Part shown: one piece after another, positions 16,558 to 39,966 of the stretch | How positions within the stretch are numbered: the stretch's first letter is position 1 | Layout: each line of letters begins with the position of its first letter | IMG/VR virus record: IMGVR_UViG_2721755721_000007 | DNA length: 42,037 nucleotides | Direction: 5' to 3' (one strand) | From: a virus | Taxonomy: Duplodnaviria > Heunggongvirae > Uroviricota > Caudoviricetes | The notes under the pieces: model-generated | Databases searched by the model: none | Seen by the model: the letters and a program-made list of their open reading frames with translations, nothing else | Told to the model about the DNA's origin: nothing | Program-made: the position numbers and the translations under genes

Positions 16558-17338
16558 TTACGCCAGTTGTACGGACACGAACGCATCAGGGTCAGCCAGC
16601 AGCATCAGCGGTGCTGACTGAATCATGGTGAACTCACGCGCCGGATCGCCGGTGGTCACCCAGTTTTTCGGGTAGCGGGCAGAGGCGTTAATACCTTCGC
16701 GCTGTGCGTCCGCATCCTGAATGCAGCCATAGGTGCGCAGACCGCGTGCCTGAGAGTTCCCCAGCACCATCGTGTTGTCCGGAAGGAAGTTCTTTTTGAC
16801 GTCGTTTTCCACGTACTGTCCGGAATACACGACGATCGCCGTATCGCCATACATCCCCTTATAGGACACCGCTTCGCCCAGGTCTTTTACCGCTGTCTCC
16901 AGCTCGGAATTAGAGCCGCGACGGGTATCCAGCTTCTCCTTGACGGCTTTGAAGGAACGGAACAGCGCCCAGCCTTTCGGATCAAACACGATGATATTCA
17001 CCACTCCGCTGGCGTTCAGCGCATAGGCTTCGATATCGTCGGTCGGGTCATACGTGGACTTGTCACGCTTGCTCCACTCCGTACCACCGGACTGTGTGAT
17101 GTTGTTCGCCGCACTGCGGCCCATATCCACCTCAACCGGATCGAAGGCTTCACCGGTCATGGTGTATTTGCCCTTAAGCACAGCAGAAACTGCCTGCATC
17201 TCTTCGACCTGAGCAATGGCCAGCTCTTCGTCTCGCATGTTCTGCATGATGATGCGACGGCGGCGGTAAGCCGGGTCCGCCAGATTCTGCGGATCTTCAT
17301 CCGGCAGGCGACGCAGGGTCATCTGCGGATTCACCTCA
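16558..17338 (-). pseudogene. E: 3' fragment of major capsid gene E (lambda gpE residues ~83-341), separated from its 5' part by the island
   Basis: Encodes (E)VNPQMTLRRLPDEDPQNLADPAYRRRRIIMQNMRDEELAIAQVEEM...FVSVQLA, matching lambda gpE from residue 83 to the end; no credible start or RBS (the tracked start is a GTG inside the E frame). Confidence 0.9.
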
Positions 17339-17348
17339 TGCTTCGGCT
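17339..17348. repeat. 10-bp att core / direct repeat TGCTTCGGCT (island right junction)
   Basis: Identical 10-mer at 31235-31244; flanking sequence differs, and E gene sequence resumes exactly at the repeat. Confidence 0.75.
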
Positions 17349-18388: not shown

Positions 18389-18418
18389 AAGGTCAAATGC
18401 TTTTGACAAATAAAATCT

Positions 18419-18445: not shown

Positions 18446-18494
18446 GCAACAAAGAACCACCTAAGCACTCTTCCTACCTATGGTTTCATTTGTT

Positions 18495-19046: not shown

Positions 19047-19267
19047 TGTTCATTCCACGGACAAAAACAGAGAAAGGAAACGACAGAGGCCAAAAAGCTC
19101 GCTTTCAGCACCTGTCGTTTCCTTTCTTTTCAGGGGGTATTTTAAATAAAAACATTAAGTTACGACGAAGAAGAACGGAAACGCCTTAAACCGGAAAATT
19201 TTCATAAATAGCGAAAATCCGCGCGCCTGACGCCCCGTAGCCTGTCAGATCGCCGGAAAGGACCCGC
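18739..19267. repeat. ~0.53 kb segment near-identical to the prophage nu1 5' half plus cosB (copy of 37117..37643)
   Basis: Aligns base-for-base with 37117..37643 apart from a few substitutions and a divergent cosN block. Confidence 0.85.
19060..19240. other. Island cos site: cosB-like Nu1-binding repeats identical to the prophage, cosN region altered
   Basis: R-site-like GGAAACG repeats as in lambda cosB. At the cosN position (19225-19236) the island reads cgcctgacgccc where the prophage reads aggtcgccgccc (5 of 12 differ). Confidence 0.7.
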
Positions 19268-19291
19268 CAGCCAGAGCGGGCCCTAATTTCA

Positions 19292-19675
19292 TCAACCAAT
19301 CAGCTTATAGCGACCATCCCGTGCATTGCGGCGTACACGCTCAATCTTGAGGCATAGCGCCGCATCTGGCTTTTTTGGGACAGGTACGCGGCAATATTCA
19401 GAAGCGCGAGGAATATTATTTATCCAGTCGATCACTTCACTTAAATACCAGGCCTTACGCCCTTCCGTAACCTGCACACGCTCCGGGAACTCTCCACTAG
19501 CCTCAAGGTTTAGCAGTGTACGCCGACTCAGGGTTGTAATTTCCATCACCTGATTCATATCAACAAGGCGCTCGCTTAAACACATTTTGTCAGCGATAGC
19601 TTTTAATTCCTCTACAGCTGGATTCGGGTACATCATTTCGGCAATTGGCTTAAGGTCATTGTAATCATTTTGCAT
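19292..19675 (-). CDS. AlpA/excisionase-like HTH DNA-binding protein (127 aa)
   Basis: C-terminal half MEITTLSRRTLLNLEASGEFPERVQVTEGRKAWYLSEVIDWI resembles the phage AlpA-family HTH. Confidence 0.55.
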   Translation of the reverse strand: MQNDYNDLKPIAEMMYPNPAVEELKAIADKMCLSERLVDMNQVMEITTLSRRTLLNLEASGEFPERVQVTEGRKAWYLSEVIDWINNIPRASEYCRVPVPKKPDAALCLKIERVRRNARDGRYKLIG

Positions 19676-19686
19676 TGTATCCCCCT

Positions 19687-20028
19687 TTACACACGAGCCA
19701 GCGGCTGAACAGAAATACCTGAGCCAACAAACGCTGCAATCTTTACTGACAGTTCTTTTACAGACTCAGGCCAGTTCAGAGCATCAACATTTAAGACACC
19801 TGTCTTATAGACCTGAGCCTGTGTTTTTTTCGCGGTGTCGATTTGTACAGCGGAAACATAAACCGCTTTACCTACGCTCGAACCATCCCATACCACCAGT
19901 GCACCTGTTGCATCTTCCTGCATCAGTGGCGTAAATGCAGGAATTACCCCTTTATTAGCTGAAAATATCCCCAGCGTAGTCACCAGTGCTTCAGTGCCAG
20001 CCATGAGTTCAGTGTAATGAGTAGCCAT
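19687..20028 (-). CDS. Head decoration protein, lambda gpD homologue (113 aa), island-encoded
   Basis: TPLMQEDATGALVVWDGSSVGKAV... aligns with lambda gp[28 protein letters not shown]; similar length. Confidence 0.7.
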   Translation of the reverse strand: MATHYTELMAGTEALVTTLGIFSANKGVIPAFTPLMQEDATGALVVWDGSSVGKAVYVSAVQIDTAKKTQAQVYKTGVLNVDALNWPESVKELSVKIAAFVGSGISVQPLARV

Positions 20029-20037
20029 TGCTCCCCC

Positions 20038-21078
20038 TTAGCCAATGCGAACGGTAACAAAACGATTGATGCGGGCCGGTATTGGCTGTGGTGCTGAATG
20101 TGTCTGCACATATTCAATAGCCGGATCACCAGGCACAATATAGTTTTTCGGTGCAAGTTCGGCTTTAGTCAGCCCCATTCGGATTAGCTCCGGATCCTGA
20201 ATACCGCCATAGGCGACAATCCCCTGAAGAGCCGTATTGCCAAGCACCATCAAATCAGGATCAAGGAAATGTTTTTCAGTTCCGTCCTCGTCGGTATAAC
20301 GCCCGCTGTAAACAACAATCGCAACATCGCCCATATATCCTTTAAAACTCACCGAATCACCAAGGTCTTTAAGGGCCGTTTCCAGTTCGGAATTAGAACC
20401 ACGACGGGTATCCAGAGCCTCTTTTATCGCTCTGAATGAACGGTATTTCTTCCATACATTACCGCCCATAATGATGATATTAGTGACGCCCTCACTAAAT
20501 TCTGCGTAGCTCTCAATATCATCATTTGGATCAAAAGTTTCTTTATCCTTACCTGACCACTCAGTACCGCCAGACTGAGTGATGATATTTTGTGGTTTAA
20601 TATTCCAGTCCAGCTCATAACGTTCAATACCATCGCCCTCAATGATATTTTTCCCCGTTGTGATTGCCTGAACGGCAAGCCATTCAATACGTGCACGAAT
20701 AGCTTTAGCTTGATTTACAATCGCCTGTTTAACTTTAATATTACGCGCCCCAAAAGCATTGTATTGCTCAGGTGATACACCAGCAGGGCGCACAGCTAAC
20801 TTATTTGGATCAATGCTGCTTTTCGGCTTCATATAGCCTGGACGAATTGTTTTTGATTCGTACCCTTCGTCACGTGAAACTTTACTACCCACCATAGGAG
20901 AACAAAACGCTGCAATTGGGATATTTGGATCGTCGATTGTATCAAGAATAATATCGCGCGATCCAAACATTACCGAGCGAGTAAAAAACAAACTGGTAAA
21001 CAACGCATTTAGTTGTTTTTGTACATCTACAGCATTAACCACCTGTACAAGCTGGGTAGGCGAATATAAATCAACCAT
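20038..21078 (-). CDS. Major capsid protein homologue, lambda gpE family (~346 aa), island-encoded
   Basis: About 50% identical to lambda gpE over the C-terminal two-thirds (ITQSGGTEWS..., DTRRGSNSELETA.KDLG, GDVAIVVYSG). Start taken at MVDLYSPTQ, with AAGAGG 6 nt upstream; the tracked ORF extends a further 71 codons. Confidence 0.85.
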   Translation of the reverse strand: MVDLYSPTQLVQVVNAVDVQKQLNALFTSLFFTRSVMFGSRDIILDTIDDPNIPIAAFCSPMVGSKVSRDEGYESKTIRPGYMKPKSSIDPNKLAVRPAGVSPEQYNAFGARNIKVKQAIVNQAKAIRARIEWLAVQAITTGKNIIEGDGIERYELDWNIKPQNIITQSGGTEWSGKDKETFDPNDDIESYAEFSEGVTNIIIMGGNVWKKYRSFRAIKEALDTRRGSNSELETALKDLGDSVSFKGYMGDVAIVVYSGRYTDEDGTEKHFLDPDLMVLGNTALQGIVAYGGIQDPELIRMGLTKAELAPKNYIVPGDPAIEYVQTHSAPQPIPARINRFVTVRIG

Positions 21079-21252
21079 ACGCATCCTCTTTGCATTCATT
21101 AAAAATAATTGTGGATATATGCTATCACCGATATTTGTCATGCGAACACATGCAACCGAGTGCAATGTTGTATAAAGTTTTGGGGTGACAACTTCAGTGC
21201 GGACAATTAGTGTTAATATCTTCACTCCCTTTGGTCGGGATTTATGTAGCAT

Positions 21253-21283
21253 GCCGGAAAATTTATTTTTTCCGGCTTTTTTT
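21253..21283 (+). terminator. Terminator-like hairpin oriented against the island late operon
   Basis: GCCGGAAAA-tttatt-TTTTCCGGC followed by TTTTTTT on the plus strand, in the SSB/capsid-homologue intergenic region. Confidence 0.4.
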
Positions 21284-21294
21284 ATTGGCAATAT

Positions 21295-21744
21295 TTAAAA
21301 CGGGATATCATCTCCCCATTGCTCATTATCTCCCTCTGGTGGCTGGCTTCCTTGCTGATCTGCCTGTTGTTTTGCTCTGTTCAGTGCGTCAGTAGCCTGC
21401 CCCTGTTGGCCTTTTTTGCCGCCCGGTCGCACCGATCGCGCACTGATTACGCTGTCTGCGATAACCTGCCAGCCCTGCCGCGTTTCGCCGTTCTGTCCAG
21501 TCCACTGGCTCATCTGCATGTTACCCGCCACGCTCAGGAGTTCGCCTTTGTGATGCTTTGCCAGCGCGTCGGCTTGTCTGCCAAACGCCAGGACAGATAA
21601 CCACAACGTCGCCAGACCGTCATCCGACTGACTGCAGGGCAGTGATACCGCCATACGCGCCAGCGTCATGGGGGTGCCCTTGCTGGTCTGTTTTGTCTGC
21701 GGGTCGTCCACCAACCGCCCGTAAACTGATATTTGCGCCGTCAT
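21295..21744 (-). CDS. ssb: Single-stranded DNA-binding protein (149 aa)
   Basis: OB-fold-like N-terminus, Gly/Gln-rich linker and the acidic C-terminal tail ...WGDDIPF typical of bacterial and phage SSB. Confidence 0.8.
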   Translation of the reverse strand: MTAQISVYGRLVDDPQTKQTSKGTPMTLARMAVSLPCSQSDDGLATLWLSVLAFGRQADALAKHHKGELLSVAGNMQMSQWTGQNGETRQGWQVIADSVISARSVRPGGKKGQQGQATDALNRAKQQADQQGSQPPEGDNEQWGDDIPF

Positions 21745-21998
21745 GCTGCCTGCTCTCCGGACTTAATATTGATTGTTGTCACTTCCTCCGCTTCAGCAAT
21801 CTCCCGTTCGGTCAGCGTGGCAAAGTTTGCAGCCGCCGTTGTCATGAATGCGCTTATCAGTTCGGGATGTGCTTTCGCGTATCCTTCCCCGGCGTTGCGG
21901 TCTATTGCCTTAATCGCCACCCTTAGCCAGTGTTCAGCCATATCAAGGGCGCGGTAATGTGGCTTTATATGTTTGTTCAGTTTTCCTGATGTGTGCAT
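21741..21998 (-). CDS. Hypothetical protein (85 aa)
   Basis: ORF tightly coupled to ssb (4-nt overlap); no recognised motif. Confidence 0.4.
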   Translation of the reverse strand: MHTSGKLNKHIKPHYRALDMAEHWLRVAIKAIDRNAGEGYAKAHPELISAFMTTAAANFATLTEREIAEAEEVTTINIKSGEQAA

Positions 21999-22039
21999 TT
22001 TTATTTTTACCCCCTCGTTTAAAAAGTTTTTTGTGCACC

Positions 22040-22277
22040 ACCACCTTGTCTACCTTGTCTACCTGATTAGTTATCAGGCCAGTAATGGCGCGGGTTTCAG
22101 GGAGGTAGACAGCCCCAAATAGCTGTCTACCTCATCTCTACCCGTCTCCTTACCTGTCTACAAAAATGGGTAGATAAGGTAGATAACAGGTAGACAGTGA
22201 AAAATAGTTATCTACCTGCATTAATACATTGAAATAAAAGTATTTTCTTTCAGTCAGGTAGACAAGGTAGATAACCA
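22040..22277. repeat. Iteron array, putative island replication origin
   Basis: At least 10 copies of an 8-bp GGTAGA(C/T)A motif in both orientations within ~240 bp, immediately 3' of the primase-helicase gene. Confidence 0.75.
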
Positions 22278-22287
22278 TTGCCATTTT

Positions 22288-24039
22288 TTATAAAAACGCA
22301 TCGCAATCATCAGTAGTCGTTGCGTTGGTCTGCGTGACTCCCTTAACTTTTCGCGTAATATATTCATATCCGTAAACTTTCGCCGCTGACCTCATAGCCT
22401 TTCCGAACTCATTCACGCTCAAACATTTCCCCTTTCCTGTGTATGCCATGAAGGCCATATAGACACGGTAAAGGCTGTTTCTGGTCGTGTACTTCACGGT
22501 GTCACCACCACCGCCCATCATTAGCCCACGAGCTTCCTCCAGAAACTCCAGCGCCGCGCAAAGCTCAACAACCGGATCCGTTTGCTGCTTTATTGCCAGA
22601 GCTTCATCACCGTCACGCTGTTCCAGTAATAAAGCCCGTGCCTTTTCAGGGGCAGCAAAATTAGCCAGCAAGCGGCGGATAATTACGGGGATTTCTGCCG
22701 CTATCTTTTCCGGTAATTCCTTGTCTTTTTCGTCCTCCCTTACAATGTTGTCGAACCGGAAAATCACCCGACGGCGTGACACACCTCCGGCCCGTTCGGT
22801 AAAGATCATCGGGTCGTTATTGGTTGCCAGTACCACCGCCCTTATTATCGTCGTGAATCGCTTCTCATATTTCGGGTTAATTTCAACGGGATCGCCTCCC
22901 GTGATTTTCTTGATGCCCGTGCCTTCCCCCGTATATTTCGGCTGATCGGCAAGGACGATAAGACGACTCCCGACAACCTGCGCGCGCCCTCCTGCATCAT
23001 CGAGTGATGTCATCTCCGCGCTTACGGTGTTCTGTTTGCCAGCAAGCAGGGTGGCAATATGGGTAAATGTACTCTTACCGCTTCCCCCGTCTCCGGTGGC
23101 CTCAATGAACATCTGCCAGTCGTAGCGGTTCGCCATAATCATGTATAACGCGGCACATATACGCATCATCTTACGCGGGTCTTTTCTTGCAGCATGTTCA
23201 AGCCATTTATGGAAATTTGGCGCATTATCGCGGATGTTTTCCCCTGCTACTGGTGGCGTGTACTCAATGCCATTGTGCGTGGTGCTCCAGTGCTCCGGCG
23301 AGTGCGGAGAAAATTCCCCCGTTTTCAGGTTAAGCACACCATTAGTGAACGGTAGCAAATCACCGGACGGCTCCCCCATGGGGTCGGCAATAACTTTTAA
23401 CGCTTCCACGGCGTTATTGATTACACGTTTGCTGAACGTGGCCCTGTGCTCTGAATAGATCGCCACCATTTCGCGGCTCAGCTCCATTGTGCTGACCGGA
23501 CACCATACCCCGCCGCGCCATACGTGGACGATTTCACTTTCTGCATGAACACACACACCATCAAAGCGATCGGCAAGTAGTTGTGCACGTTCACTGTCTG
23601 CCATCTGTGAAAGTTGCGCCTTTTGCTTCGTCGGAAGATTAAGCACCAGACTTTCCCCACGCTCGCATTCCTCTTTGAGTCGCGGCAACTGCTCGGATAA
23701 ATCCACTGGGCTGGTGTCAGTAATCCCCGCGTATTCGTGTACGGTCTTCACTCCAGCCACAGCCAGTAACGTAACAATCTGCGTCATGCTGTGCTCTGTG
23801 ATATGTCCTGCGCGGTAAACACGCACACACTGACGATCTTCATCAATGATCCGGTAATCGGTGATATTTTTCAGTTGCTCATCAGCCAGCACGACAGGCG
23901 GCACATCGTCGGCGGCAATATGTTTACCCGCCCATTCCCGCCACTCTTTCGCATGGCTCCACGCATCACTACCTGCAAAGATGATTACCTCTGTCAGTCT
24001 GTCGCGTGGCTGTTTTTTTAAGTTCGGTGCCAGTTTCAT
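22288..24039 (-). CDS. Primase-helicase (P4/D5-like, SF3 helicase domain), 583 aa
   Basis: Walker A GDGGSGKST and layout typical of the P4-family primase C-terminal domain; positioned as a PICI pri-rep gene next to the iterons. Confidence 0.8.
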   Translation of the reverse strand: MKLAPNLKKQPRDRLTEVIIFAGSDAWSHAKEWREWAGKHIAADDVPPVVLADEQLKNITDYRIIDEDRQCVRVYRAGHITEHSMTQIVTLLAVAGVKTVHEYAGITDTSPVDLSEQLPRLKEECERGESLVLNLPTKQKAQLSQMADSERAQLLADRFDGVCVHAESEIVHVWRGGVWCPVSTMELSREMVAIYSEHRATFSKRVINNAVEALKVIADPMGEPSGDLLPFTNGVLNLKTGEFSPHSPEHWSTTHNGIEYTPPVAGENIRDNAPNFHKWLEHAARKDPRKMMRICAALYMIMANRYDWQMFIEATGDGGSGKSTFTHIATLLAGKQNTVSAEMTSLDDAGGRAQVVGSRLIVLADQPKYTGEGTGIKKITGGDPVEINPKYEKRFTTIIRAVVLATNNDPMIFTERAGGVSRRRVIFRFDNIVREDEKDKELPEKIAAEIPVIIRRLLANFAAPEKARALLLEQRDGDEALAIKQQTDPVVELCAALEFLEEARGLMMGGGGDTVKYTTRNSLYRVYMAFMAYTGKGKCLSVNEFGKAMRSAAKVYGYEYITRKVKGVTQTNATTTDDCDAFL

Positions 24040-24335
24040 TTTTTGCCCCTGAATGCGTTAATCATGCTTTTCATTTTCTGGATGTTTCCCCGCGCTTTTT
24101 CCCTGCTGATGGGCTTACTGCGGGGTGCGGCATATACCAGGGAAAAATCACGCCGGAACTGATAAACAGGCATCACGCAGTCATAGCTATACCCCTCACG
24201 GCGGTAAGTGATGCGCCGTTCTGCCACGCCTTTAATCGTTACTGTGCCGCCGTATTTATCGCGGTAAATATCGCCGTTCATAAATTCAGGCCGAGCGGGG
24301 CCGCTGGCAATAAAGCCAGAATTTTTCATTTCCAT
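24036..24335 (-). CDS. Hypothetical protein (99 aa), translationally coupled to the primase
   Basis: ATGA overlap with the downstream primase start; no recognised motif. Confidence 0.45.
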   Translation of the reverse strand: MEMKNSGFIASGPARPEFMNGDIYRDKYGGTVTIKGVAERRITYRREGYSYDCVMPVYQFRRDFSLVYAAPRSKPISREKARGNIQKMKSMINAFRGKK

Positions 24336-24352
24336 ATTATTTATTCCTCGAC

Positions 24353-24574
24353 TTAACTCGACTTATTTGATAGCAGGGCACTATTTATTGCGTCATTGAG
24401 TTTTTCTGCTGATTCATCAATAAGTGACAACAGGCCATAAGCAATATTTGCATCTTCATTGTCATTTATGCAATCAAGCCACATATTTAATATTGCTTTT
24501 GCTGAATTATTTAAAGTTAATGAACTTTCTGCACATGCTAACAATTTAAAAAAGACTTCCCGTTCTGTATTCAT
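24353..24574 (-). CDS. Hypothetical small protein (73 aa)
   Basis: Part of a head-to-tail run of small ORFs in the island early operon; AT-rich. Confidence 0.35.
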   Translation of the reverse strand: MNTEREVFFKLLACAESSLTLNNSAKAILNMWLDCINDNEDANIAYGLLSLIDESAEKLNDAINSALLSNKSS

Positions 24575-24766
24575 TTAATCCCCCACCAGCTTACTTTCTT
24601 CCTCAATCAGGAAACTAGCGACACTTCCCGAAAGGCGCGCCAGTAGGCTCGCCAGCGCGGATATATCAGCATCTGTAATTTTGTTCGGGTATACCTCAAG
24701 AAGGCGGCAAATAATTTCTGTCTGGTGCGCACGTTCAGCGGCTTCGTGTAATGTGATTTCCTGCAT
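24575..24766 (-). CDS. Hypothetical small protein (63 aa)
   Basis: Tightly packed ORF in the same operon. Confidence 0.35.
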   Translation of the reverse strand: MQEITLHEAAERAHQTEIICRLLEVYPNKITDADISALASLLARLSGSVASFLIEEESKLVGD

Positions 24767-24951
24767 TAATGCACCTCTTTTAATTCATACACTGCTGAAA
24801 TAATGACTTGTGATAAGCCATATTCTGATGATTCGCTTCTCACCGCAGCAATAGCCGTCTGAACATTAACAGCCTTCACGTTCTGAGTGATACCAATTGT
24901 GTGGCCCAGTGGGTTAACAGCTCGGGCAAATACACGGAAGGTTTTAAGCAC
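24766..24951 (-). CDS. Hypothetical small protein (61 aa)
   Basis: Tightly packed ORF in the same operon. Confidence 0.35.
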   Translation of the reverse strand: MLKTFRVFARAVNPLGHTIGITQNVKAVNVQTAIAAVRSESSEYGLSQVIISAVYELKEVH

Positions 24952-25207
24952 GGCACACCTCCTGACGAATACGGGCGGCGAATATCATCACGTAGCCAGT
25001 TGGGGATTGCTGGCGGGCTTCCTGTTCGCTGGCGGCCTCGATGTGTATTACGCGTGGTTGTGCGGTGCTCAGGGCGATAAAACGCCAGATGTATTTATTC
25101 AGGTTGTGCGAATCCCGCCCTTGCGGGTGTGTGGTATGATTTCTCATAGCTACCTCGATACTGTTGCTATCGTTGGTGGTTAGACGCCCTGTATGTGTTG
25201 CGAGCAC
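24944..25207 (-). CDS. Hypothetical small protein (up to 87 aa; start uncertain)
   Basis: First ORF of the leftward operon, divergent from the RHH gene; an internal Met (MRNHTTHPQ...) is a possible alternative start. Confidence 0.35.
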   Translation of the reverse strand: MLATHTGRLTTNDSNSIEVAMRNHTTHPQGRDSHNLNKYIWRFIALSTAQPRVIHIEAASEQEARQQSPTGYVMIFAARIRQEVCRA

Positions 25208-25244
25208 TGCAGGGCGTTGTTATATAGCAATAAAACATGATAAG

Positions 25245-25286
25245 GTGTGTACCTATCAAGAATCATACTAAGCAATAGGTACACAC
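25245..25286. promoter_or_regulatory. Perfect 12-bp inverted repeat (GTGTGTACCTAT-N18-ATAGGTACACAC) abutting the RHH start codon; putative operator
   Basis: Read directly; arms at 25245-25256 and 25275-25286, lying in the divergent intergenic region between the early operon and the RHH gene. Confidence 0.55.
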
Positions 25287-25481
25287 ATGTCAACTATCAT
25301 TCAACGTGATAAACAACCGAAAGGTGCAGGTAAAGCACCAGCATTCCAAGTCCGTATTAACCCAGAATTAAAAGAACAAATGGTTAATGTCGCTGCCAAA
25401 GAAGGGATGAGCTTAGGTAACTGGCTAAAAGAACTGGCTCGTGCCGAACTAATAAAACAAGGAATAACACCTAAAGGCTGA
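25287..25481 (+). CDS. Small ribbon-helix-helix (CopG/Arc-like) DNA-binding protein, 64 aa
   Basis: Predicted beta-strand FQVRINPELKEQM followed by helices VNVAAKEGMSLGNWLKELARAEL; typical RHH layout. Confidence 0.6.
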   Translation: MSTIIQRDKQPKGAGKAPAFQVRINPELKEQMVNVAAKEGMSLGNWLKELARAELIKQGITPKG

Positions 25482-25504
25482 TAATTTGCATAAAGGATTC
25501 TTCT

Positions 25505-26854
25505 ATGACAACAAGTCACAAAATGCTAGAAATCAGTAAAGAACAATTTGATGTATTTTTCTATGGTCGTACACCATACGTAAAAACCTTTTCGGAGGAA
25601 ATCTGTTGGTTCAAATTTATAAAGGATGATGTCACGATCTTAGCAACAATTGTTTTTTGTAAAATAGATAATGATTACAACGCTATATTTCTAGGTAGGG
25701 ATTTAGATAAAAAATTTAGAGCGATTAAAGTAATTGTATCCCGTGAATCTAAAGATGATTTAATTACTGATATGGAAAAAGCCATACCAGAGCTATTATC
25801 ACTACACAAGAACGGTTGTTTTATACAGGGTGACGAATCAGAGTCGGCATTTTCAATATTCCTAGCCAAAGTTCCAGAACATAAAAAAAACGTTTATCTA
25901 AGAATGCTACTTGAGGAACCCAAACACTATCCTGCATTTATTGTTATGCAAGAGTTAGCTTATTGGTGTAAAGATCCTGATGGAATATTCATCAGAGATT
26001 TCCAGAGTGCTTCATTTAACTCTCGCTTATTCGAACTTTATCTAAACGCAGTTTTCTACGAAATGGATTTCGTAATATGCAGAGATTATGCTCAACCTGA
26101 TTATATTATCTCAAAAAATGGCATTGATATTGCTGTAGAAGCTGCCACAGTTGCAGAACAAGAGGAACCTACCGAGAAATTGATACTTGATCATGAGGCA
26201 GTAGAAGATCTTCAGAGATATGTAAAAGAACAAATGCCATTCAAATTTGCCCGCACTCTATTAAAGAAAGTTAGGCATAAACCTGAACCCTTAAAATTAT
26301 GCTATTGGGAACTAGATCATACAAAAGGAAAGCCTTTCATTATTGCTTTACACGATTACTCACGCAGATTTTCGATGAGTATATCAATGCCAGCACTACA
26401 AAGCTATCTGTATGGTGTAGATATGGATTCTGGAAGTAAAATTGAACAACATTTATTTGAAAATCGAAGTATACAATCTAATTTTTTCGGCTCTAATAAA
26501 AATGAGAATGTCTCAGCCATATTACTTGCGACACATGCCACCATCCCAAAATTTGATAGGATGGGAGTAGTGGCAGGGATTGAACAAAAAAATGTCAAAT
26601 CCATCGTTAGAGGTATTAAAACTGATGAAGGCTGTACCCCAATGCCTTTTACTGCTCTTGTCAATGCACCTTCATATCAAGAACCATGGTGTACAGCAAT
26701 ATACATGTTTCATAATCCGAAGGCATTAAATCCTATACGCCCTGAATTATTCCCAAGAGTTATTCATATTTTTGAAGAAGATGGAGAAATAGTTCAATAC
26801 TTACCACCTAATTATATAATCTCATCAACTACGCACGTATTTGAATTTAAGTGA
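25505..26854 (+). CDS. Orphan protein of unknown function (449 aa), co-oriented with and 24 bp downstream of the RHH gene
   Basis: Long uninterrupted ORF in a markedly AT-rich segment; no Walker A, HEPN, or other motif I can recognise. Confidence 0.6.
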   Translation: MTTSHKMLEISKEQFDVFFYGRTPYVKTFSEEICWFKFIKDDVTILATIVFCKIDNDYNAIFLGRDLDKKFRAIKVIVSRESKDDLITDMEKAIPELLSLHKNGCFIQGDESESAFSIFLAKVPEHKKNVYLRMLLEEPKHYPAFIVMQELAYWCKDPDGIFIRDFQSASFNSRLFELYLNAVFYEMDFVICRDYAQPDYIISKNGIDIAVEAATVAEQEEPTEKLILDHEAVEDLQRYVKEQMPFKFARTLLKKVRHKPEPLKLCYWELDHTKGKPFIIALHDYSRRFSMSISMPALQSYLYGVDMDSGSKIEQHLFENRSIQSNFFGSNKNENVSAILLATHATIPKFDRMGVVAGIEQKNVKSIVRGIKTDEGCTPMPFTALVNAPSYQEPWCTAIYMFHNPKALNPIRPELFPRVIHIFEEDGEIVQYLPPNYIISSTTHVFEFK

Positions 26855-26905
26855 TTTCAAATCCTATGGGTTTACCCCATAGGATTACATCCACTGTCTA
26901 AATTC

Positions 26906-27127
26906 TTACCACTCTCCCCTAATCCATGCCTGCACTTCTGAAAGACGATATGCAACAGCAGTGGAACCAATCTTGATCCGCTTAGGAAATTTTCCTTCCT
27001 TCTCCAGCTTCCAGCGTGTGCTGTTCGCAAGAGTGGTTAGCTCCCGACATTCTTTCTCACGGATCATACGATCGATATTAGGAATGTACTCCAGACCCTT
27101 TTTATCGACAATTGCCATTTTTTTCAT
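26906..27127 (-). CDS. alpA: AlpA-family transcriptional regulator (73 aa)
   Basis: MKKMAIVDKKGLEYIPNIDRMIREKECRELTTLANSTRWKLEKEGKFPKRIKIGSTAVAYRLSEVQAWI is a typical AlpA HTH. Confidence 0.8.
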   Translation of the reverse strand: MKKMAIVDKKGLEYIPNIDRMIREKECRELTTLANSTRWKLEKEGKFPKRIKIGSTAVAYRLSEVQAWIRGEW

Positions 27128-27176
27128 GTTAACCAGCCTTTTGTTTGTAAGCGACTCGTCAGAACCGTATTGATAT

Positions 27177-28748
27177 TTACTGAGAGCTCAGATCAACTTT
27201 CCAGGGCAACAGATCGCGTACCCGGTTTGCCGGCCAGTCCTGGATATGTTCAATGACGTAACGCAGCCACTTTTCTGGCTCCACATTGTTCAGACGGCAT
27301 GTGCCGATCAGCGAGTACAACACCGCCGCATGTTCACCACCGCTGTCGGAACCCGCGAACATCCAGTTTTTCCGGCCTACGGCCACTCCCCGTAAGGCGT
27401 TCTCTGCGATGTTGTTGTCGATTTCCACCCAGCCATTACTGCAGTACACGTTCAGTGCATCCCACTGTTTCAGCAGGTATGCGAACGCTTTTGCCGTATC
27501 TGAGTGACGCGACAGTGTTTTCATCTGTTGCTGTATCCAGTCATACAGTGACTGCATCAGTGGCGCGGCTCTGGCTTTTCTTGCCGCCAGACGCTGTTCT
27601 GCTGAACAGCCCCGGACCTCTGCCTCGATGGCATACAGTTCACCGATACGCTGCAGGGCTTCCGTGGTGATGTAGGTGGGCGCTCTTGCATGCACATCGT
27701 GGATTTTTCTCCGGGCATGAGCCATACACGCGGCTTCCGTTATTCTGCCGGATTCGTATAACGCCCGGTAACCACCGTAAGCATCGGCCTGAAGCACACC
27801 GCTGTAACCGGCCAGGTGATTTTGTGGATGGATACCTTTCCGGTCCGGACTGTACGCGAACCAGACCGCCGGGGGCATCTGTGAACCGGCGTTACGGTCA
27901 TCACGGACGTAGACCCACAGCCGGGCTGTCCGGGTTTTACCGCTGCCCGGCTCCTGGACCGGGACGGGGATATCATCAGCATGGACTTTACCGGGCATCA
28001 GCACATACTGGCGCAGGACGTCATACAGCGGCTCCAGCAGTTCAGCAACAGCACCTGTCCAGCGCCCCAGTGTGGCACGGCTCAGCTCCACTCCCTGACG
28101 ACGGTATATTTCTGACTGGCGGTATAACGGCAGATGGTCTGCATATTTCCCGGTGACAACATGGGCCAGAAGCCCCGCTCCGGCATAACTGCGTGCAATG
28201 GGTTTTGAAGGTACTGGTGCCTGCACGATATGGTCGCACCGGCAACAGGCCTGTTTCGGACGTTGTGTTTCGATAACCTTAAAGGCGCTGCTGATAAGCT
28301 CCAGTTGCTCTGACACATCACATCCCAGAGAACTGAGTTCACCACCACAGGCAGGACAGCATTCCTCTTCCGGCCGGATAACCCGGGTTTCACGGGGAAG
28401 TGAGGCCGGTAACGGTTTACGGGCTGAAGACTGGCGCAGGGCGGATGGCAGTACCGGGTCATATTGCTCACCCAGCGTTTCCGCCATTTCTTCCTGAAGT
28501 GCGCTGATTCGCTCCTGTGCTTCCTGTATCTGCCGTTCGGTTTTTGCACGAAGTTTTTCTGAGCTTTTACCGAACTGCATACGTTGCAGTTTCGCAACCA
28601 GCGCCTTCAGCCGGTTGATTTCGGAAGCATAAGCCGCCACCCGCTGTGAGAGCAGGCGGTTGTATTCAGCCATCTGGCGGATGGTGTCCTGTTGCGTCTG
28701 CAACAGTGCCCGCAGGCGGGCGTTCTCATGAGCAAGTGAGGTGTCCAT
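27177..28748 (-). CDS. IS66-family transposase TnpC (523 aa)
   Basis: Leucine-zipper-like N-terminus, CxxC...CxxC zinc-finger region and DDE core typical of IS66 TnpC. Confidence 0.85.
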
Positions 28749-28767
28749 ATCCTCACTTTACAACGGG

Positions 28768-29115
28768 TTATATGCGGATTCCAGCGCGTTCCGTTCGTTT
28801 CGGGTGCTTCCAGTTGATACCTTCAAGAAGCATGGATAACTGAGCCGGAGTAAGGTGCACCTTGCCGTCACGGGTGACTGGCCAGACGAAGCGGCCCCGC
28901 TCCAGGCGTTTGGTGAAGAGGCACAGTCCGTCACTGTCAGCCCACAACACTTTTATCTGGTCACCCCGGCGTCCGCGGAAGATGAACAGGTGTCCGGAGA
29001 ACGGGTCATCCTTCAGGACGTTCTGAACTTTTGATGCCAGGCCGTTAAAGCCATTTCGCATATCGGTGATACCTGCAACCAGCCAGATACGCGAACCTGC
29101 AGGGAGAGATATCAT
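28768..29115 (-). CDS. IS66-family TnpB (115 aa)
   Basis: MISLPAGSRIWLVAGITDMRNGFNGLASKVQ...HLFIFRGRRGD is the conserved IS66 Orf2. Confidence 0.85.
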   Translation of the reverse strand: MISLPAGSRIWLVAGITDMRNGFNGLASKVQNVLKDDPFSGHLFIFRGRRGDQIKVLWADSDGLCLFTKRLERGRFVWPVTRDGKVHLTPAQLSMLLEGINWKHPKRTERAGIRI

Positions 29116-29792
29116 CAGTGGCTGCTCCCTTTTATTTCGCGGATAAGTGTCTGTAATAACGCCGGCGTCAGTTTACCTTTAAGCCTGAGAGTTCCGGCCG
29201 GCAGAACCAGCTCACAACACAGACTGTCGGACGGTGTATTTATCTGCTCTGGTTCCTGTGCGGGGGCCGGGATTTTATTATCCGGCTCCGGCGTTAACGT
29301 CACGGGAAGCAGTGCCGGCATATTTTTTCCGGAAGGCAGCAGGCCACCTTTCCGGTATTGATGGCGCCAGTTGAAGAGCAGGTTATCGTTGATTCCGTTT
29401 TCCCGGGCGATCTGCGCCACACAGGCTCCGGGCTGTAGTGACTGCTCCACTAAGGCGATTTTAAACTCATAAGGGAAGTTGGGCCGCCGGGGACGTTTTT
29501 TTACCACGGGGGCTTCGGATATAACGGTGCTTTCAGGACGTACGACTGGTACCGTGGAAAATTGTCCGTAAAGGCAGGCATCAAGTTCCTGCTCCGACAT
29601 GCCTGCGGGCAAAGGCCACGAAAGGCCAGCTCTCCGAAAGCGCACGAACATACTACAAACTGTTGATTTTGGTACACTCAGGCGACGCCCGGCCACAACC
29701 CGGGGTAAATGTTCTTCAAAGTGAAGACGTAAAGCTTCAGTGATCCAGGTCCGGTGTTTCATACGATAGTGTCCATTAAAAATGATGGACAT
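29115..29792 (-). CDS. IS66-family TnpA/Orf1-like HTH protein (start uncertain; tracked ORF 225 aa)
   Basis: Contains the HTH motif PGACVAQIARENGINDNLLFNWRHQYRKGG typical of IS66 Orf1; the long N-terminal extension may not all be translated. Confidence 0.6.
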   Translation of the reverse strand: MSIIFNGHYRMKHRTWITEALRLHFEEHLPRVVAGRRLSVPKSTVCSMFVRFRRAGLSWPLPAGMSEQELDACLYGQFSTVPVVRPESTVISEAPVVKKRPRRPNFPYEFKIALVEQSLQPGACVAQIARENGINDNLLFNWRHQYRKGGLLPSGKNMPALLPVTLTPEPDNKIPAPAQEPEQINTPSDSLCCELVLPAGTLRLKGKLTPALLQTLIREIKGSSH

Positions 29793-31072
29793 TATTTTTG
29801 TAGAGCCGGAGGAAACAGACCAGACGGTTTAAATGAGCCGGTTACCTTTTGTTTGAGGATTGTCACTTTTGAATCAGCACCTGCGATGCTATTGAGATAT
29901 GTAGTCCAGAGTTCCAGAGCATCCAGTTTTTTAGCCATAAACTTACTCCGGTTGTAAACACCTGCCACGCCAGGTAGCGCATGGCCTAACAGTTGTTCTA
30001 CTACATAAAATTCAACACCGAGATCACTTAGATGAGTAGATAGCGTTCTTCTAAGGTCGTGTAGTGACCATTGTTTTTCATGGCCCAAACGTTTACCGAT
30101 TTTCCCCCCAATCTTGCTTACGCTTTCTCTAATTCGCAGACTTCCCAGCACATAACCAGTATGTTTTGTCTCTTCGTGAACATCCGTTACCCACTGTCGT
30201 AGAATTTCAGGTACTGGTCTGACGATTTCAACACCAGTTTTTGAGTGATCTTTTGGTACAGTCCAAACCCAACTTTCGAGATCCCATTCGCTCCATTCTG
30301 ATAATCGGGCTTCACTCATTCGACATCCAAATACTGTACAAAGCACAAACATTTTTCGCGTGTATTCAGACATTAGTTTTAAATCAGGCTCGACAAAAAT
30401 TGCCTTCCAGAGCTGGCCGAGTTCGGCTTCATCCAGAACCCGATCCCGCTTACCTGCAATCTGCCCCACATCACTCATGCGCAAATCCTTTAAAGCATCA
30501 CACGTCGCGTACTGGCGTACCCGACAAAAACGAAGAGCTAATTTAGTGTCAGAAAAAACATACGCCGCCATAACTGGTGCATTACGTTTAATTCGGTCAA
30601 AACAGTCCAGCCATTCATATAGGTGAGTGTCATTTACGGGCAAATGACCGATATAGGGAAAGATATGCTTTCGAAATCTGCCAAGCGTTACAGCATGAGT
30701 TTTACGACGCACCTTACAGTAATTTTCATACCAGTAATTTAGTGCATCCTCCACTGTGACCGGCTTTAAGCGTTCTTCAGCCTGAATCTTAATCTGGATA
30801 CGCGGATCACGTTTGTCAGCCAACCAACCACGGCACTCGTCGCGCTTTTCCCTTGCCTGTTTGAGTGACATATCAGGATATTTACCCAACGTTAGCCAGA
30901 CCGGAGCAGCCCGGCCACCTGCTAACCTGTAGAAGAAAACAAAGCTCACAGCCCCTTTAGTACTCACACGAATAGAAAGCCCCTTTCCATCAGCAATGGT
31001 GATCTGCTTTTCTCTGGGTTTCCCCAGATATCCTTTAAGCGCTTTGTCGCTCAGTTTGTTCTCGCCAGCCAT
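29792..31072 (-). CDS. int: P4-type tyrosine integrase; native 3' end interrupted by the IS66 at ~29846
   Basis: H-x-x-R box (HDLRRT), LLGH and a conserved Tyr in GVYNR near the C-terminus. Start taken at MAGENKLSDK. The reading frame runs into the IS, adding ~18 foreign codons. Confidence 0.85.
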   Translation of the reverse strand: MAGENKLSDKALKGYLGKPREKQITIADGKGLSIRVSTKGAVSFVFFYRLAGGRAAPVWLTLGKYPDMSLKQAREKRDECRGWLADKRDPRIQIKIQAEERLKPVTVEDALNYWYENYCKVRRKTHAVTLGRFRKHIFPYIGHLPVNDTHLYEWLDCFDRIKRNAPVMAAYVFSDTKLALRFCRVRQYATCDALKDLRMSDVGQIAGKRDRVLDEAELGQLWKAIFVEPDLKLMSEYTRKMFVLCTVFGCRMSEARLSEWSEWDLESWVWTVPKDHSKTGVEIVRPVPEILRQWVTDVHEETKHTGYVLGSLRIRESVSKIGGKIGKRLGHEKQWSLHDLRRTLSTHLSDLGVEFYVVEQLLGHALPGVAGVYNRSKFMAKKLDALELWTTYLNSIAGADSKVTILKQKVTGSFKPSGLFPPALQK

Positions 31073-31234
31073 TTTTAGCCCCAAAAAGCAATACAAGCTG
31101 CAATACAGAGATGATTGCAACACACAGATAACGAGGAAAATTCAGTGAAAGCACCAGATAAACTTATTCTTTATTATCAAAAGATTAAGTGTAAAAACCA
31201 GCAACTACACGAAAGCCTCAGAAAGCCATGCTAA

Positions 31235-31244
31235 GTGCTTCGGC
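31235..31244. repeat. 10-bp att core / direct repeat TGCTTCGGCT (island left junction)
   Basis: Identical to 17339-17348; capsid gene E sequence resumes on the far side. Confidence 0.75.
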
Positions 31245-31480
31245 TTGACATATCCCGGTGTAAATTCAGAGGTGGAGCCGCCACGGGAGCGGATAACCTC
31301 ACCGGAAACAATCGGCGAAACGTACAGCGCCATGTTTACCAGTCCCGGAATTTGTGAGAGATAGACTTTCTCCGTGGTGAAGGGATAGCTCTCACGGAAA
31401 AAGAGACGCAGAAACAGCGGATCAAACTTAAATTTCTTCTCATTTGCCGCCAGCAGCTGGGCGGTTGTGTACATCGACAT
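31235..31480 (-). pseudogene. E: 5' fragment of major capsid gene E (codons 1-82), reading into island DNA to a stop at 31205
   Basis: MSMYTTAQLLAANEKKFKFDPLFLRLFFRESYPFTTEKVYLSQIPGLVNMALYVSPIVSGEVIRSRGGSTSEFTPGYVKPKH matches the lambda gpE N-terminus, then 9 foreign codons (LAWLSEAFV). Confidence 0.9.
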
Positions 31481-31535
31481 AAAAAAATCCCGTAAAAAAA
31501 GCCGCACAGGCGGCCTTTAGTGATGAAGGGTAAGG

Positions 31536-31868
31536 TTAAACGATGCTGATTGCCGTTCCGGCAAACGCGGTCCGTTTTTTCGTCTCGTCGCTGGCAGCCT
31601 CCGGCCAGAGCACATCCTCATAACGGAACGTGCCGGACTTGTAGAACGTCAGCGTGGTGCTGGTCTGGTCAGCATCAACCGCCAGAATGCCAACGGCAGT
31701 ACCGTCGGTGGTGCCATCCCACGCAACCAGCTTACGGGTGGAGGTGTCCAGCATCAGCGGGGTCATTGCAGGCGCTTTCGCACTCAATCCGCCGGGCGCG
31801 GTTGCCGTATGTGCCGGGTCACTGTTGCCCAGCGGCTGGTAATGGGTAAAGGTTTCTTTGCTCGTCAT
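31536..31868 (-). CDS. D: Head decoration protein D (110 aa)
   Basis: [43 protein letters not shown]... matches lambda gpD. Confidence 0.9.
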
Positions 31869-31877
31869 AAACATCCC

Positions 31878-33177
31878 TTACACTGGTGTGTTCAGCAAAT
31901 CGTTAACGGCATCAGATGCCGGGTTACCTGCAGCCAGCGGTGCCGGTGCCCCCTGCATCAGACGATCCAGCGCAGTGTCACTGCGCGCCTGTGCACTCTG
32001 TGGTGCAGCTGCCAGAATGCGGCGGGCCGTTTCCACGGTCATACCGGGGGTTTCTGCCAGCACGCGGGCCTGTTCTTCGCGTCCGTGAGCCTCCTCACAG
32101 TTGAGGATCCCCATAATGCGGCTATTTTCTGCCGCAACCGCAGCGGTGATCTGCGCGTTCACGTCCGGCTGCGCCGCGCTGGCGTTTTCGCCCTCCGTCG
32201 CTGGCACCACGTCAGTAACGTCAGTCTGCGAAGCAGTGGCTGAAACAGTTGTTGATTGAGTCTCTTTGGTCATTCGTCCTCCTGAGAGACGGGATTTACG
32301 CGCATCCAGTGCATCACGCATGACGGTGATCGCATCGGTGCTGTTAACAAGTTCATCAGCCAGTCCGGCATCAATGGCCTCCTGACCGCTGTACACTGCA
32401 GCCTCGGTATCCAGCACAGCCTGCACAGACAGGCCGGTATATGCCGACACCTTCTGCGCAAACATCTGGCGGGTTGCGTCCATCCGGGACTGCAGTGTCT
32501 CCCGGACGTCATCCGGAAGATGGCTGTAGGGATTGCCATCCACCTTATGGCTGCCGCTGTAAATCAGCGTGATTTCCACACCCTGTTTCTCCAGGGCAGC
32601 ACCGTAATTACTGTGAGCCATCATGACGCCGATGGAGCCTGTCCGGGCGGTCTGCGTGACCAGACGCCGGGAGGCGGCACTGGCAAGCAGCTGACCTGCA
32701 CTGCAGTTCATGTCGTTGGCCAGCGCCCATACCGGTTTTATGTCTCGCACACGGGCGATGATGTCAGCGCAGTCAAATGCCCCCGCCACCATTCCGCCTG
32801 GCGTGTCCATATCGAGCAGAATGCCGTCCACCATCGGGTCGCTGGCAGCCTGTTGCAGACGGGCGATAATGCCGTTGTAACCGGTCATCCCCGAGTACGG
32901 CTGCAGCGCCCGCGTCCGGCTGACCAGCGTGCCGGACACCGGCAGCACGGCGATGCCGTTCATGACCTGATAACTGCGGGCCTGTCGTGGTCCGTCATCA
33001 TCACCGGATAATGCCAGCGTCGCGAGTGCCTCCTGGGCAGTCAGGCTGTCGCCGGACACCGCATCCGTCAGGCGGCTGATCCCAAGCTGGCCTGCAAGCG
33101 CACAAAAGAAAACCCGCGCATAGGCGGGTTCAAGCATCAGCGGCTCATTAAAGGCCATGCTGGCAATATGCGGGAGA

Positions 33178-36878: not shown

Positions 36879-36904
<26 letters not shown>

Positions 36905-37424
36905 TCAGCAACCCCGGTATCAGTTCATCCAGCGCGGCTGCTTTGTTCATGGCTTTGATGATATCCCGTTTCAGGAAATCAACATGTCGGTTTTCCAGTT
37001 CCGGAAAACGCCGCTGCACCGACAGGGGGATCCCGTCGAGAATACTGGCAATTTCACCTGCGATCCGCGACAACACGAAAGTACAGAATGCGGTTTCCAC
37101 CACTTCAGCGGAGTCTCTGGCATTCTTCAGTTCCTGTGCGTCGGCCTGCGCACGCGTAAGTCGATGGCGTTCGTACTCAATAGTCCCTGGCTGGAGATCT
37201 GCCTCGCTGGCCTGCCGCAGTTCTTCAACCTCCCGGCGCAGCTTTTCGTTCTCAATTTCAGCATCCCTTTCGGCATACCATTTTATGACGGCGGCAGAGT
37301 CATAAAGCACCTCATTACCCTTGCCACCGCCTCGCAGAACGGGCATTCCCTGTTCCTGCCAGTTCTGAATGGTACGGATACTCGCACCGAAAATGTCAGC
37401 CAGCTGCTTTTTGTTGACTTCCAT
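36879..37424 (-). CDS. nu1: Terminase small subunit Nu1 (181 aa)
   Basis: Matches lambda gpNu1 over its full length. Confidence 0.9.
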
Positions 37425-39004: not shown

Positions 39005-39472
39005 TCATCGAAGGCATTGCGTCCTGATGTATTCCTGAAGCGTTCTCAGTGCTGTTTGGTCGCGGATAATTCCGTCCCGGACACCGAGAACGTTTCGTCC
39101 AGCAACTGGAGAGAGTTCGACGGTGGCATCATTGCCCATGCCGGAGGCGCTGGAGGTTTCGGCTGAGGATGGCACAGGGCATTTTCCTTTGACGAGCACC
39201 CGACCACCATTATCAAGCTTGCGCCGAAGAGCATCATTTTCAGCTTTCGCATCAGCTAACTCCTTCGTGTATTTATCATCGAGTGCATCAGCATCACGCT
39301 GGCGCTGCTGCATGTCAGTAATGGTGGCGTTCGCCTTCTCCAGTTCACTGGCCTTGTTATCGCGCTGTTCTTTGTAGGCGATTGCATTATCACGGTAATG
39401 ATTAACAGCCCATGACAGGCAGACGATGATGCAGATAACCAGAGCGGAGATAATCGCGGTTACCCTGCTCAT
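39005..39472 (-). CDS. Rz: i-spanin Rz
   Basis: [41 protein letters not shown]... has the lambda Rz N-terminus with a divergent C-terminus; start overlaps the R stop (ATGA). Confidence 0.85.
39046..39252 (-). CDS. Rz1: o-spanin Rz1 (lipoprotein), embedded in Rz in the +1 frame
   Basis: [19 protein letters not shown] with a lipobox Cys, then a Pro-rich stretch [11 protein letters not shown], as in lambda Rz1. Confidence 0.8.
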
Positions 39473-39966
39473 TGTTGCCCCCACAAACAGACCTCACGCT
39501 CAATCTCACGACGAGTCATCAGGCCTTTCCATTGCTTACCGCCAGCGTATGCCCAGCGACGTAGCTGGTCACATGCGCCCTTGATATCGCCCTGGTTTAT
39601 TTTGCGAAGAAGAGTAGATGTTCTGAAATTGCCTGCGCCCACGTTATAGACGAACGAGTAAAGAGCGCCGCGCGTTGTTTCCGGTATATCGACTTTGATG
39701 TACGGGTTAATTTGTCTGGCTACCGTGGCAAGGTCTTTATTCAGGAGGGCTTTGCATTCTGCTTCGGTATACGTTTTACCGGGAATGATGTCTTTTCCTG
39801 TATGCCCGTGACATACAGTCCATACGCCAACGATATCTTTGTATGGTATGTAGCTGACACCTTCCAGACCATCGTTACCACTTGGGCCAGTGATTAACAC
39901 TGATGCTATAGCAATTGCTCCGCCACCAATAGCAGCAGCAACGGCTTTTCGTAATGATGGAGGCAT
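39469..39966 (-). CDS. R: SAR endolysin (GH24 lysozyme with N-terminal signal-anchor-release domain), P21 R-like, 165 aa
   Basis: [44 protein letters not shown]... is near-identical to the P21 endolysin as I recall it. Confidence 0.85.

Follow-up and report, generated by a model that had tools for sequence, protein, structure and literature searches.

The 11capE family of HE-PICI satellites is characterised by an att site that is a 10-bp identity block (PMC10111431). Excision of the element has been demonstrated experimentally in the founder of the family, strain NRG857c, and excision together with replication upon helper induction has been shown for NRG857c only (PMC10111431). According to a hypothesis of Tommasini et al. 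2023, late transcription of the helper, being antiterminated, reads into the satellite (PMC10111431). AlpA acts as master activator in the model Gram-negative PICI, EcCICFT073: the helper switches alpA on, and deletion of alpA abolishes transfer (Fillol-Salom et al. 2018, PMC6092414). The insertion sequence ISCro1 is known from the afa promoter region of the afa/dr locus of E. coli ST131, where the afaA transcript is down by 2.5 log2 (PMC8764528).

The window analysed here is a stretch of 42,037 nucleotides from a Caudoviricetes record (IMGVR_UViG_2721755721_000007). Both the satellite family and ISCro1 were already known, and the analysis is chiefly of use for annotation, identifying the island as a helper-embedded PICI from a described family and its IS as a standard ISCro1.

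An 11capE-type satellite in a lambdoid capsid gene

From its position, att sites and gene content, the island is assigned to the 11capE type of helper-embedded PICI satellites, inside lambdoid capsid gene E. It is delimited by the following features:

16558..17338, minus strand: helper major capsid gene E, 3' fragment
17339..17348, unstranded: att core TGCTTCGGCT, far end of the satellite, the matching copy
17349-31235: satellite, 13,887 bp in length, or ~11,179 bp once the IS is taken out
31236..31245, unstranded: att core TGCTTCGGCT, int end of the satellite, within helper capsid gene E and in agreement with the 10-bp 11capE block
31246..31480, minus strand: helper major capsid gene E, 5' fragment, interrupted by the satellite
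Expected attB junction, plus strand: GGATTCACCTCA-TGCTTCGGCT-TGACATATCCCGGTG
Expected attP junction, plus strand: GCCATGCTAAG-TGCTTCGGCT-ACATGAGTCAAATATG

Satellite genes and the split gene E share a strand: the island interrupts a prophage late gene, runs in its direction and supplies no replacement for the split gene. The 10-bp att identity block falls in gene E and both att cores are intact; an integration zone of int with its adjacent alpA, a replication zone with a primase (Pfam hits) and a size of 11,179 bp without the IS, within the 10-20 kb range, likewise agree with 11capE. The int-alpA region is 99% identical to that of NRG857c. The satellite also encodes a full-length Nu1-like small terminase gene, and among its cargo are homologues of defence proteins PD-T7-1 and PDC-S31. 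In the helper, the holin gene is cut at ~40098 by a second IS, ISEc23, which is oriented opposite to the late operon and interrupts that operon upstream; its presence suggests general IS-driven decay. The part of the window from 21906 to 32127 (10,222 bases) is identical to E. coli CP010238.1.

ISCro1 at the junction of int and alpA

It is close to certain that a single intact ISCro1 lies in the last int codons of this 11capE-type satellite. The affected region comprises:

26906..27127, minus strand: alpA, 73 aa, Phage_AlpA; the identical protein is listed in 1076 assembly-collection blocks
27138..27146, unstranded: target-site duplication, alpA-side copy (C)TTTTGTTT, present in single copy at IS-free loci
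27147..29846, minus strand: intact ISCro1 (IS66 family), 2699 bp if its end is GGTTAC (29845), 2700 bp including the next C
28748..27177, minus strand: tnpC, DDE transposase, 523 aa, with DDE_Tnp_IS66 (E 2.5e-103), zf-IS66, LZ_Tnp_IS66 and DDE_Tnp_IS66_C
29115..28768, minus strand: tnpB, 115 aa, Pfam TnpB_IS66 (E 5e-40)
29792..29115, minus strand: tnpA, 225 aa, Pfam HTH_Tnp_1
29846..29854, unstranded: target-site duplication, int-side copy (C)TTTTGTTT
29792..31072, minus strand: chimeric integrase ORF, 426 aa, with residues 1-409 native (29847-31072) and the last 17 plus the stop codon from the IS end

A sequence-only reading of the window had reported an intact IS66-family element, and proved right in almost all particulars: tnpA, tnpB and tnpC are co-directional and have IS66-type domains, the two ends (left GTAAGCG..., right ...GGTTAC(C)) are imperfect inverted repeats in which the left end, GTAAGCGACTCG, aligns imperfectly with the reverse complement of the right end, GTAACCGGCTCA, and a sequence search matched 2700 of the 2700 bases of 27147-29846 at 100% identity to many E. 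coli loci. The name was taken from the RefSeq annotation of the matched loci ('IS66-like element ISCro1'). At least 80% of the ISCro1 query is present in 2182 records, the best match being at least 99% in 1781. This copy is a common E. coli element, and its presence here is an ordinary strain-specific insertion.

The 8-bp duplication claimed by the same reading is present as TTTTGTTT at 27139-27146 and 29847-29854, and becomes one of 9 bp, CTTTTGTTT (27138-46 and 29846-54), if the boundaries found in six other copies are applied to the IS. That boundary rule (GTAAGCG...GGTTAC, 2699 bp) derives from six 100%-identical E. coli copies of ISCro1, with 8-bp duplications that all start with C; these were sampled for target sites instead of relying on a scan of contigs for ISCro1 ends, which returned two unrelated short contigs. 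Comparison with the empty site confirms a direct duplication of about the 8 bp expected of IS66/ISCro1 elements. The target duplications at the seven ISCro1 sites have nothing in common past the leading C.

When the IS is removed in silico, the sequence reads ...AAACAAAAGGCTGGTTAA-C-ATG, and the int stop codon is separated by one base from the alpA ATG; the restored stop had been placed 2 bp away, which is correct as a difference of coordinates. The IS-removed sequence is the empty site, contiguous in 181 of 5,426 complete E. coli genomes, where int ends ...ILKQKAG-TAA one nucleotide before the alpA ATG. Nine of the ten loci with identical AlpA, NRG857c among them, have the IS-free int-alpA arrangement, with the exact empty site and the duplicated bases in one copy. 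Comparison with IS-free copies of the island, which the earlier reading had proposed as a check, thus supports its claim that int and alpA were originally adjacent: adjacency is ancestral, and by far the commoner state. Neither IS junction was found in any other complete genome searched, and the alpA-IS junction had no match among the metagenome contigs scanned. The 100% identity of ISCro1 to copies elsewhere points to a recent insertion, and by these comparisons it entered the lineage of this strain only.

On the alpA side, 19 bases separate the IS end (27147) from the A of the alpA start codon (27127), a distance of 20 positions, as originally given, and the ATG is 49 nt downstream of the tnpC stop codon. 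On the int side, the ORF (ATG at 31072, minus strand) extends 55 nt into the IS, and the replacement of the last two int codons was also read correctly: the native Ala-Gly and stop have given way to 17 IS-derived codons, VTGSFKPSGLFPPALQK, and the chimeric stop overlaps the tnpA ATG (29792..29790) as TAATG. Residues 1-409 are identical to those of the 411-aa Int proteins from IS-free loci, and the catalytic part, with its Tyr within GVYNRS at residue 373, is unchanged. No conserved block besides the catalytic motifs was found when the int 3' end was aligned across relatives at 90% and 65% identity. The chimeric Int, from either possible start, has no exact-sequence match on record, and its ORF is not called as a gene in the source genome annotation.

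Predicted consequences for alpA and the satellite

Relatives with 90% and 65% nucleotide identity have retained the geometry of int stop, 1 nt and alpA ATG. Such a conserved gap fits a bicistron, and the suggestion of the sequence-only reading that int and alpA were probably co-transcribed stands as the favoured arrangement, given a spacing that persists even in the 65%-identical relative; its further suggestions, that the IS likely perturbs the induction circuit and may have immobilised the island, are not established by the sequence. EcCICFT073 has, between int and alpA, a 365-bp intergenic region with a separate alpA promoter, whereas the gap here is 1 nt and holds no separate AlpA-activated promoter. 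Since that spacer is absent, the EcCICFT073 circuit is not simply transferable, and its alpA promoter model was rejected for this island.

The native DNA left upstream of alpA amounts to 19 bp, which holds the AAGG ribosome-binding site (the Shine-Dalgarno region is kept). This is too little for a promoter, so that alpA is left with no adjoining native promoter or upstream signals. At the IS end, neither an outward nor a hybrid promoter scored above background, the best score being 4.16 against a 99.9th percentile of 5.16 for the window. One promoter-like site remains to be listed:

31166..31195, minus strand: promoter-like site upstream of int, TTTACA-18-AAGAAT, a consensus match only

It is the sole minus-strand promoter consensus match within 26700-31300. 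In the IS-free sequence, a promoter-like site inside int, 367 bp upstream of alpA, scores well, also as a consensus match only.

The explanation that we favour, with a confidence slightly above even, is that a recent ISCro1 splits the tight int-alpA pair of an 11capE-type satellite and thereby weakens its activation. All native upstream signals of alpA but 19 bp are now 2.7 kb away; AlpA would be made only from transcripts that cross the whole IS, and any translational coupling of alpA to int would be lost. Dependence on read-through and loss of coupling would therefore delay AlpA and reduce its amount once the helper is induced. Excision and activation of the satellite, and hence repair of the helper capsid gene, would be weakened, not necessarily abolished. 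ISCro1 probably weakens the switching on of the satellite, and functional impairment is predicted as the somewhat likelier outcome. We take the event for ordinary decay of a prophage-satellite composite through IS activity rather than for an evolved regulatory device; the ISEc23 in the helper holin gene and the related islands in TUM9757 and S43, which have lost or truncated int beside IS elements, fit this view.

A possible reading, of which we are doubtful, is that the insertion is nearly neutral, alpA being co-transcribed through the co-oriented IS with int or with the antiterminated late transcript of the helper, and the satellite remaining inducible and transferable. The tnpA, tnpB and tnpC genes are co-oriented with int and alpA, giving the order int-tnpA-tnpB-tnpC-alpA, and no minus-strand terminator-like site was found across 26700-31300, thus none between int and alpA. 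Transcription of alpA by read-through is therefore still possible, and so immobilisation of the island is unproven. Read-through, notably from antiterminated helper late transcription, could still supply alpA, and if antitermination does read into the satellite, an additional 2.7 kb in the same orientation may be of little consequence. By lambda packaging limits, three satellite copies with the IS (3 x 13.9 kb = 41.7 kb) would still fit a lambda-size head. Also counting against impairment are the unaltered ribosome-binding site, both att cores and Int residues 1-409 with the catalytic region, the read-through of late transcripts proposed for the 11capE family (PMC10111431), and the continued transfer of EcCICFT073 after a tetA cassette had increased its size (PMC6092414). 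However, transcription downstream of ISCro1 was ~6-fold lower in the one case studied (PMC8764528), the conserved 1-nt coupling with int is gone, Int bears a 17-residue foreign tail that may affect it, and the helper late operon is itself broken upstream, where ISEc23 sits in the holin gene in the opposite orientation.

We consider it quite unlikely that the int/alpA boundary is a preferred or selected IS target, at which insertions lock the satellite and the helper capsid gene and domesticate the defence cargo. Of the related islands, that of TUM9757 has an independent ISCro1 in the same orientation 21 bp away and has since lost int, and S43 has ISKpn26 ~135 bp upstream of a frameshifted alpA. 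The PD-T7-1 and PDC-S31 homologues in the cargo would suit such a role. Yet these are three cases only, all from junction-centred searches and thus subject to biased ascertainment, 181 other copies are intact, the seven ISCro1 duplications share the leading C alone, and a whole-island query for IS insertions elsewhere in related islands was swamped by 2193 records sharing PICI modules and yielded no tally, so that the idea stays anecdotal. Its broadest form is a long shot: the last ~150 bp of int would be a recurrent landing or retention site for IS elements in helper-embedded satellites, locking satellite and helper, domesticating defence genes and wiring IS transposase genes into the late transcription unit of satellite and helper. 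If it were true, transposition could couple to phage induction, as the stop of the int ORF overlaps the tnpA start.

That the IS-containing arrangement is ancestral or an assembly artefact has next to no probability and was ruled out, since the 181 complete genomes and 9/10 AlpA-identical loci have precisely the empty site, where the duplicated bases occur once, the identity of the IS to other copies indicates a recent event, the clean target duplication is a real transposition signature, the source record is a contig of 4,797,106 bases, and nothing was found in favour.

If ISCro1 does block AlpA production, the satellite would be unable to leave the helper capsid gene and both elements would be stranded. 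The locus would then be a small concrete example of insertion sequences eroding prophage-satellite composites, and a natural mutant for testing the expression of int and alpA as one unit.

Comparison with known systems

The copy of ISCro1 described here has the same sequence as ISCro1 elsewhere (100%, full length), the same tnpA-tnpB-tnpC order, the same GTAAGCG end and a direct target duplication; this duplication is 9 bp under the delimitation of the six other copies, which have 8-bp duplications, and the element itself is no different. As in the afa/dr case, the same IS lies upstream of a gene, the transcription of which drops in that case (PMC8764528); there, however, ISCro1 lies 440 bp away from the start codon, within a divergent promoter region, whereas here it is between two coupled genes, 19 bp away.

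Like EcCICFT073 (PMC6092414), the satellite has the order int, alpA, Icd-like, DUF4222, primase, SSB, capsid and decoration genes, but EcCICFT073 is integrated in the chromosome and this satellite in a prophage. With the 11capE HE-PICIs (Tommasini, Mageeney and Williams 2023, PMC10111431) it shares its location in and co-orientation with the lambdoid capsid gene E, the 10-bp identity block, a size of ~11.2 kb without the IS, and int, alpA, primase, SSB and its own E-like capsid and decoration genes. Unlike 11capE as described, without terS (PMC10111431), it has the full-length Nu1-like small terminase gene, and unlike other 11capE satellites it has different cargo genes and ISCro1 between int and alpA.

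Insertion of ISCro1 between int and alpA

The integrase gene int and the regulatory gene alpA of the island, a satellite lying within capsid gene E of a lambdoid helper prophage, are separated by an IS66-family element. Positions 27147-29846 of the window are identical over 2700 of 2700 bases to loci annotated 'IS66-like element ISCro1', which are spread over many unrelated settings on chromosomes and plasmids; 2182 records contained at least 80% of the ISCro1 query, and the best match was at least 99% in 1781. The termini, GTAAGCG... and ...GGTTAC(C), are imperfect inverted repeats, and the three genes have the expected domains:

29792..29115, minus strand, tnpA
29115..28768, minus strand, tnpB
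28748..27177, minus strand, tnpC

The sequence-only reading had described an 8-bp target duplication, and TTTTGTTT is indeed present on both sides of the element (27139-27146 and 29847-29854). Six other 100%-identical copies in E. coli genomes are best delimited as GTAAGCG...GGTTAC, and by that boundary the duplication in the window becomes 9 bp, CTTTTGTTT, a small correction of length. The duplications of those six copies (CCTTCAAG, CTACAACT, CAGCGACC, CGGCCATC, CTCTGATA and CATCATCC) are 8 bp long and all begin with C, adjoining the GGTTAC end. Either ISCro1 prefers targets with C at this position, or the C is part of the element, which would make the duplications 7 bp long.

In silico removal of the element and one repeat copy yields ...ATCCTCAAACAAAAGGCTGGTTAA-C-ATGAAAAAAATG, in which Int ends ...KVTILKQKAG and its TAA stop is followed by one base and the alpA ATG. 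An identical 73-aa AlpA is encoded at nine loci of other assemblies, all with exactly the restored sequence and with a 411-aa Int ending in KQKAG. A 482-base query spanning the restored junction has an unbroken match in 181 of 5,426 complete E. coli genomes. Neither IS junction was present in any of the complete genomes searched, and the alpA-side junction matched no metagenome contig. One AlpA-identical locus, CP010238.1, has the IS and is the same as the window at 10,222 of 10,222 bases; among the IS-free relatives compared, the nearest shows 99.6% identity over 6.6 kb. Hence the insertion is real, recent and strain-specific, and the ancestral state is IS-free, with int and alpA adjacent as the earlier reading had supposed.

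Consequences for int and alpA

The chimeric Int keeps residues 1-409, among them the RHRH-Y motifs with Tyr373, and exchanges its terminal Ala-Gly for a 17-residue IS-encoded tail. Its new TAA stop overlaps the tnpA ATG (TAATG, 29790-29794), and therefore ribosomes finishing Int would stop right at the first start codon of the transposase operon. The genes now follow one another on a single strand as int-tnpA-tnpB-tnpC-alpA, and the tnpC stop is 49 nt from the alpA start. Upstream of alpA, only 19 bp of native DNA remain; the AAGG ribosome-binding site is among them, but they are too short to hold a promoter. Consensus scans of the int-alpA strand across 26700-31300 detected a single promoter-like site, upstream of int, and no terminator-like site; a permissive scoring scan for a promoter in the IS end facing alpA gave nothing above background. 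A perfect long hairpin at 26855-26900, AATCCTATGGG-N-CCCATAGGATT, without a T-run, lies between alpA and a convergent PD-T7-1-like gene and may be the boundary of the int-alpA transcript.

With alpA shifted 2.7 kb from int, its expression would depend on read-through of the IS, and any translational coupling of alpA to int would be lost. Deletion of alpA abolishes transfer of EcCICFT073, the model Gram-negative PICI (PMC6092414), relatives of AlpA are excisionases (PMC10111431), and in the one studied case, where ISCro1 had inserted into a promoter region, the downstream transcript was lowered by 2.5 log2 (PMC8764528). Because this role of AlpA and this precedent must be set against the points that argue against a complete block, weakened or delayed satellite induction appears most likely, with a near-neutral effect as a serious rival. 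Several points speak against a complete block: ISCro1 is co-oriented with int and alpA and has no detected terminator-like site, the alpA ribosome-binding site and the att sites are intact, and helper late transcription has been proposed to enter 11capE-type satellites by read-through (PMC10111431). The immobilisation suggested earlier is unproven. What alpA has lost is its local native signals.

Other insertion sequences

In a related satellite of strain TUM9757 (NZ_CP128931.1, 9202-14610), ISCro1 has inserted independently and in the same orientation 21 bp deeper into the 3' end of int. Nested inside this copy is another IS66-family element, flanked by an 8-bp duplication of its own. The outer ISCro1 is without a matching duplication and its far flank is unmatched, and int is therefore missing. 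In S43 (NZ_CP010237.1, 3993-5493), a related satellite remnant with a frameshifted alpA, the IS5-like ISKpn26 lies in the 3' end of int, about 135 bp upstream of alpA. These two cases show the aftermath of such insertions and hint at recurrence near the int-alpA junction, on which the searches that found them were centred and toward which they are hence biased.

A second IS66-family element, ISEc23(-like), begins with gtaagcgtaaac and occupies about 40098-42037 on the plus strand, opposite to ISCro1, extending past the window end. It cuts the helper holin gene directly upstream of the lysozyme gene (39966..39469). All late genes, those of the satellite included, lie on one side of it and the expected late promoter on the other.

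The satellite among known PICIs

The island is a helper-embedded PICI of the 11capE type, a described family (Tommasini, Mageeney and Williams, PMC10111431). Without the IS it measures 11,179 bp, and it encodes Int, AlpA, Icd-like and DUF4222 proteins, a D5-type primase, SSB and cargo, together with its own E-like capsid protein, decoration protein, second AlpA-family protein and Nu1-like small terminase. The cargo genes are on the strand opposite to the rest of the satellite.

Features of the satellite and its helper
17349-31235, island, between two copies of the 10-bp core TGCTTCGGCT
31480..31246, 5' piece of the lambda-like major capsid gene E, split by the island
17338..16558, 3' piece of the same gene
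17483-18388, plus strand, 301-aa DUF2971/PDC-S31 candidate defence protein, at the far end of the satellite
18495-19046, minus strand, full-length Nu1-like small terminase of the satellite
19292-19675, minus strand, second AlpA-family protein, 127 aa (Phage_AlpA, E 8e-9), in the late zone after the decoration gene
25287-25481, plus strand, HicB-like ORF (weak match), adjoining the PD-T7-1-like gene
25505-26854, plus strand, 449-aa cargo protein matching defence protein PD-T7-1 (E 1e-153)
36879-37424, minus strand, small terminase of the helper

The spacing of stop, one nucleotide and ATG is kept in the OkiPb01716 island (90% identity) and, as TGA-T-ATG, in the TW10828 satellite (65% identity, different late gene), whereas 365 bp separate int from alpA in EcCICFT073, where alpA has a separate promoter that AlpA and the helper both activate (PMC6092414). 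Because the 1-nt geometry is conserved, the earlier suggestion that int and alpA are probably co-transcribed is well founded for the 11capE-type family, to which the EcCICFT073 promoter model should not be extended.

The original observation is confirmed and its interpretation supported in part: ISCro1 and the satellite family are both already described, and the event is an ordinary IS insertion, specific to the strain, whose regulatory cost is plausible. Strain SCU-316 has a near-identical IS-free satellite copy within the same capsid gene. The 10-bp identity block in the description of 11capE (PMC10111431) agrees with the island's core, and NRG857c, the founder strain, is 99.2% identical to the window over the restored int-alpA region. 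The small terminases of satellite and helper share 72% identity overall, with residues 1-100 nearly identical and the C-terminal half diverged. The founder 11capE was described without terS, and other copies have a mere remnant at that position, whereas the copy in the window has a full-length Nu1-like gene.
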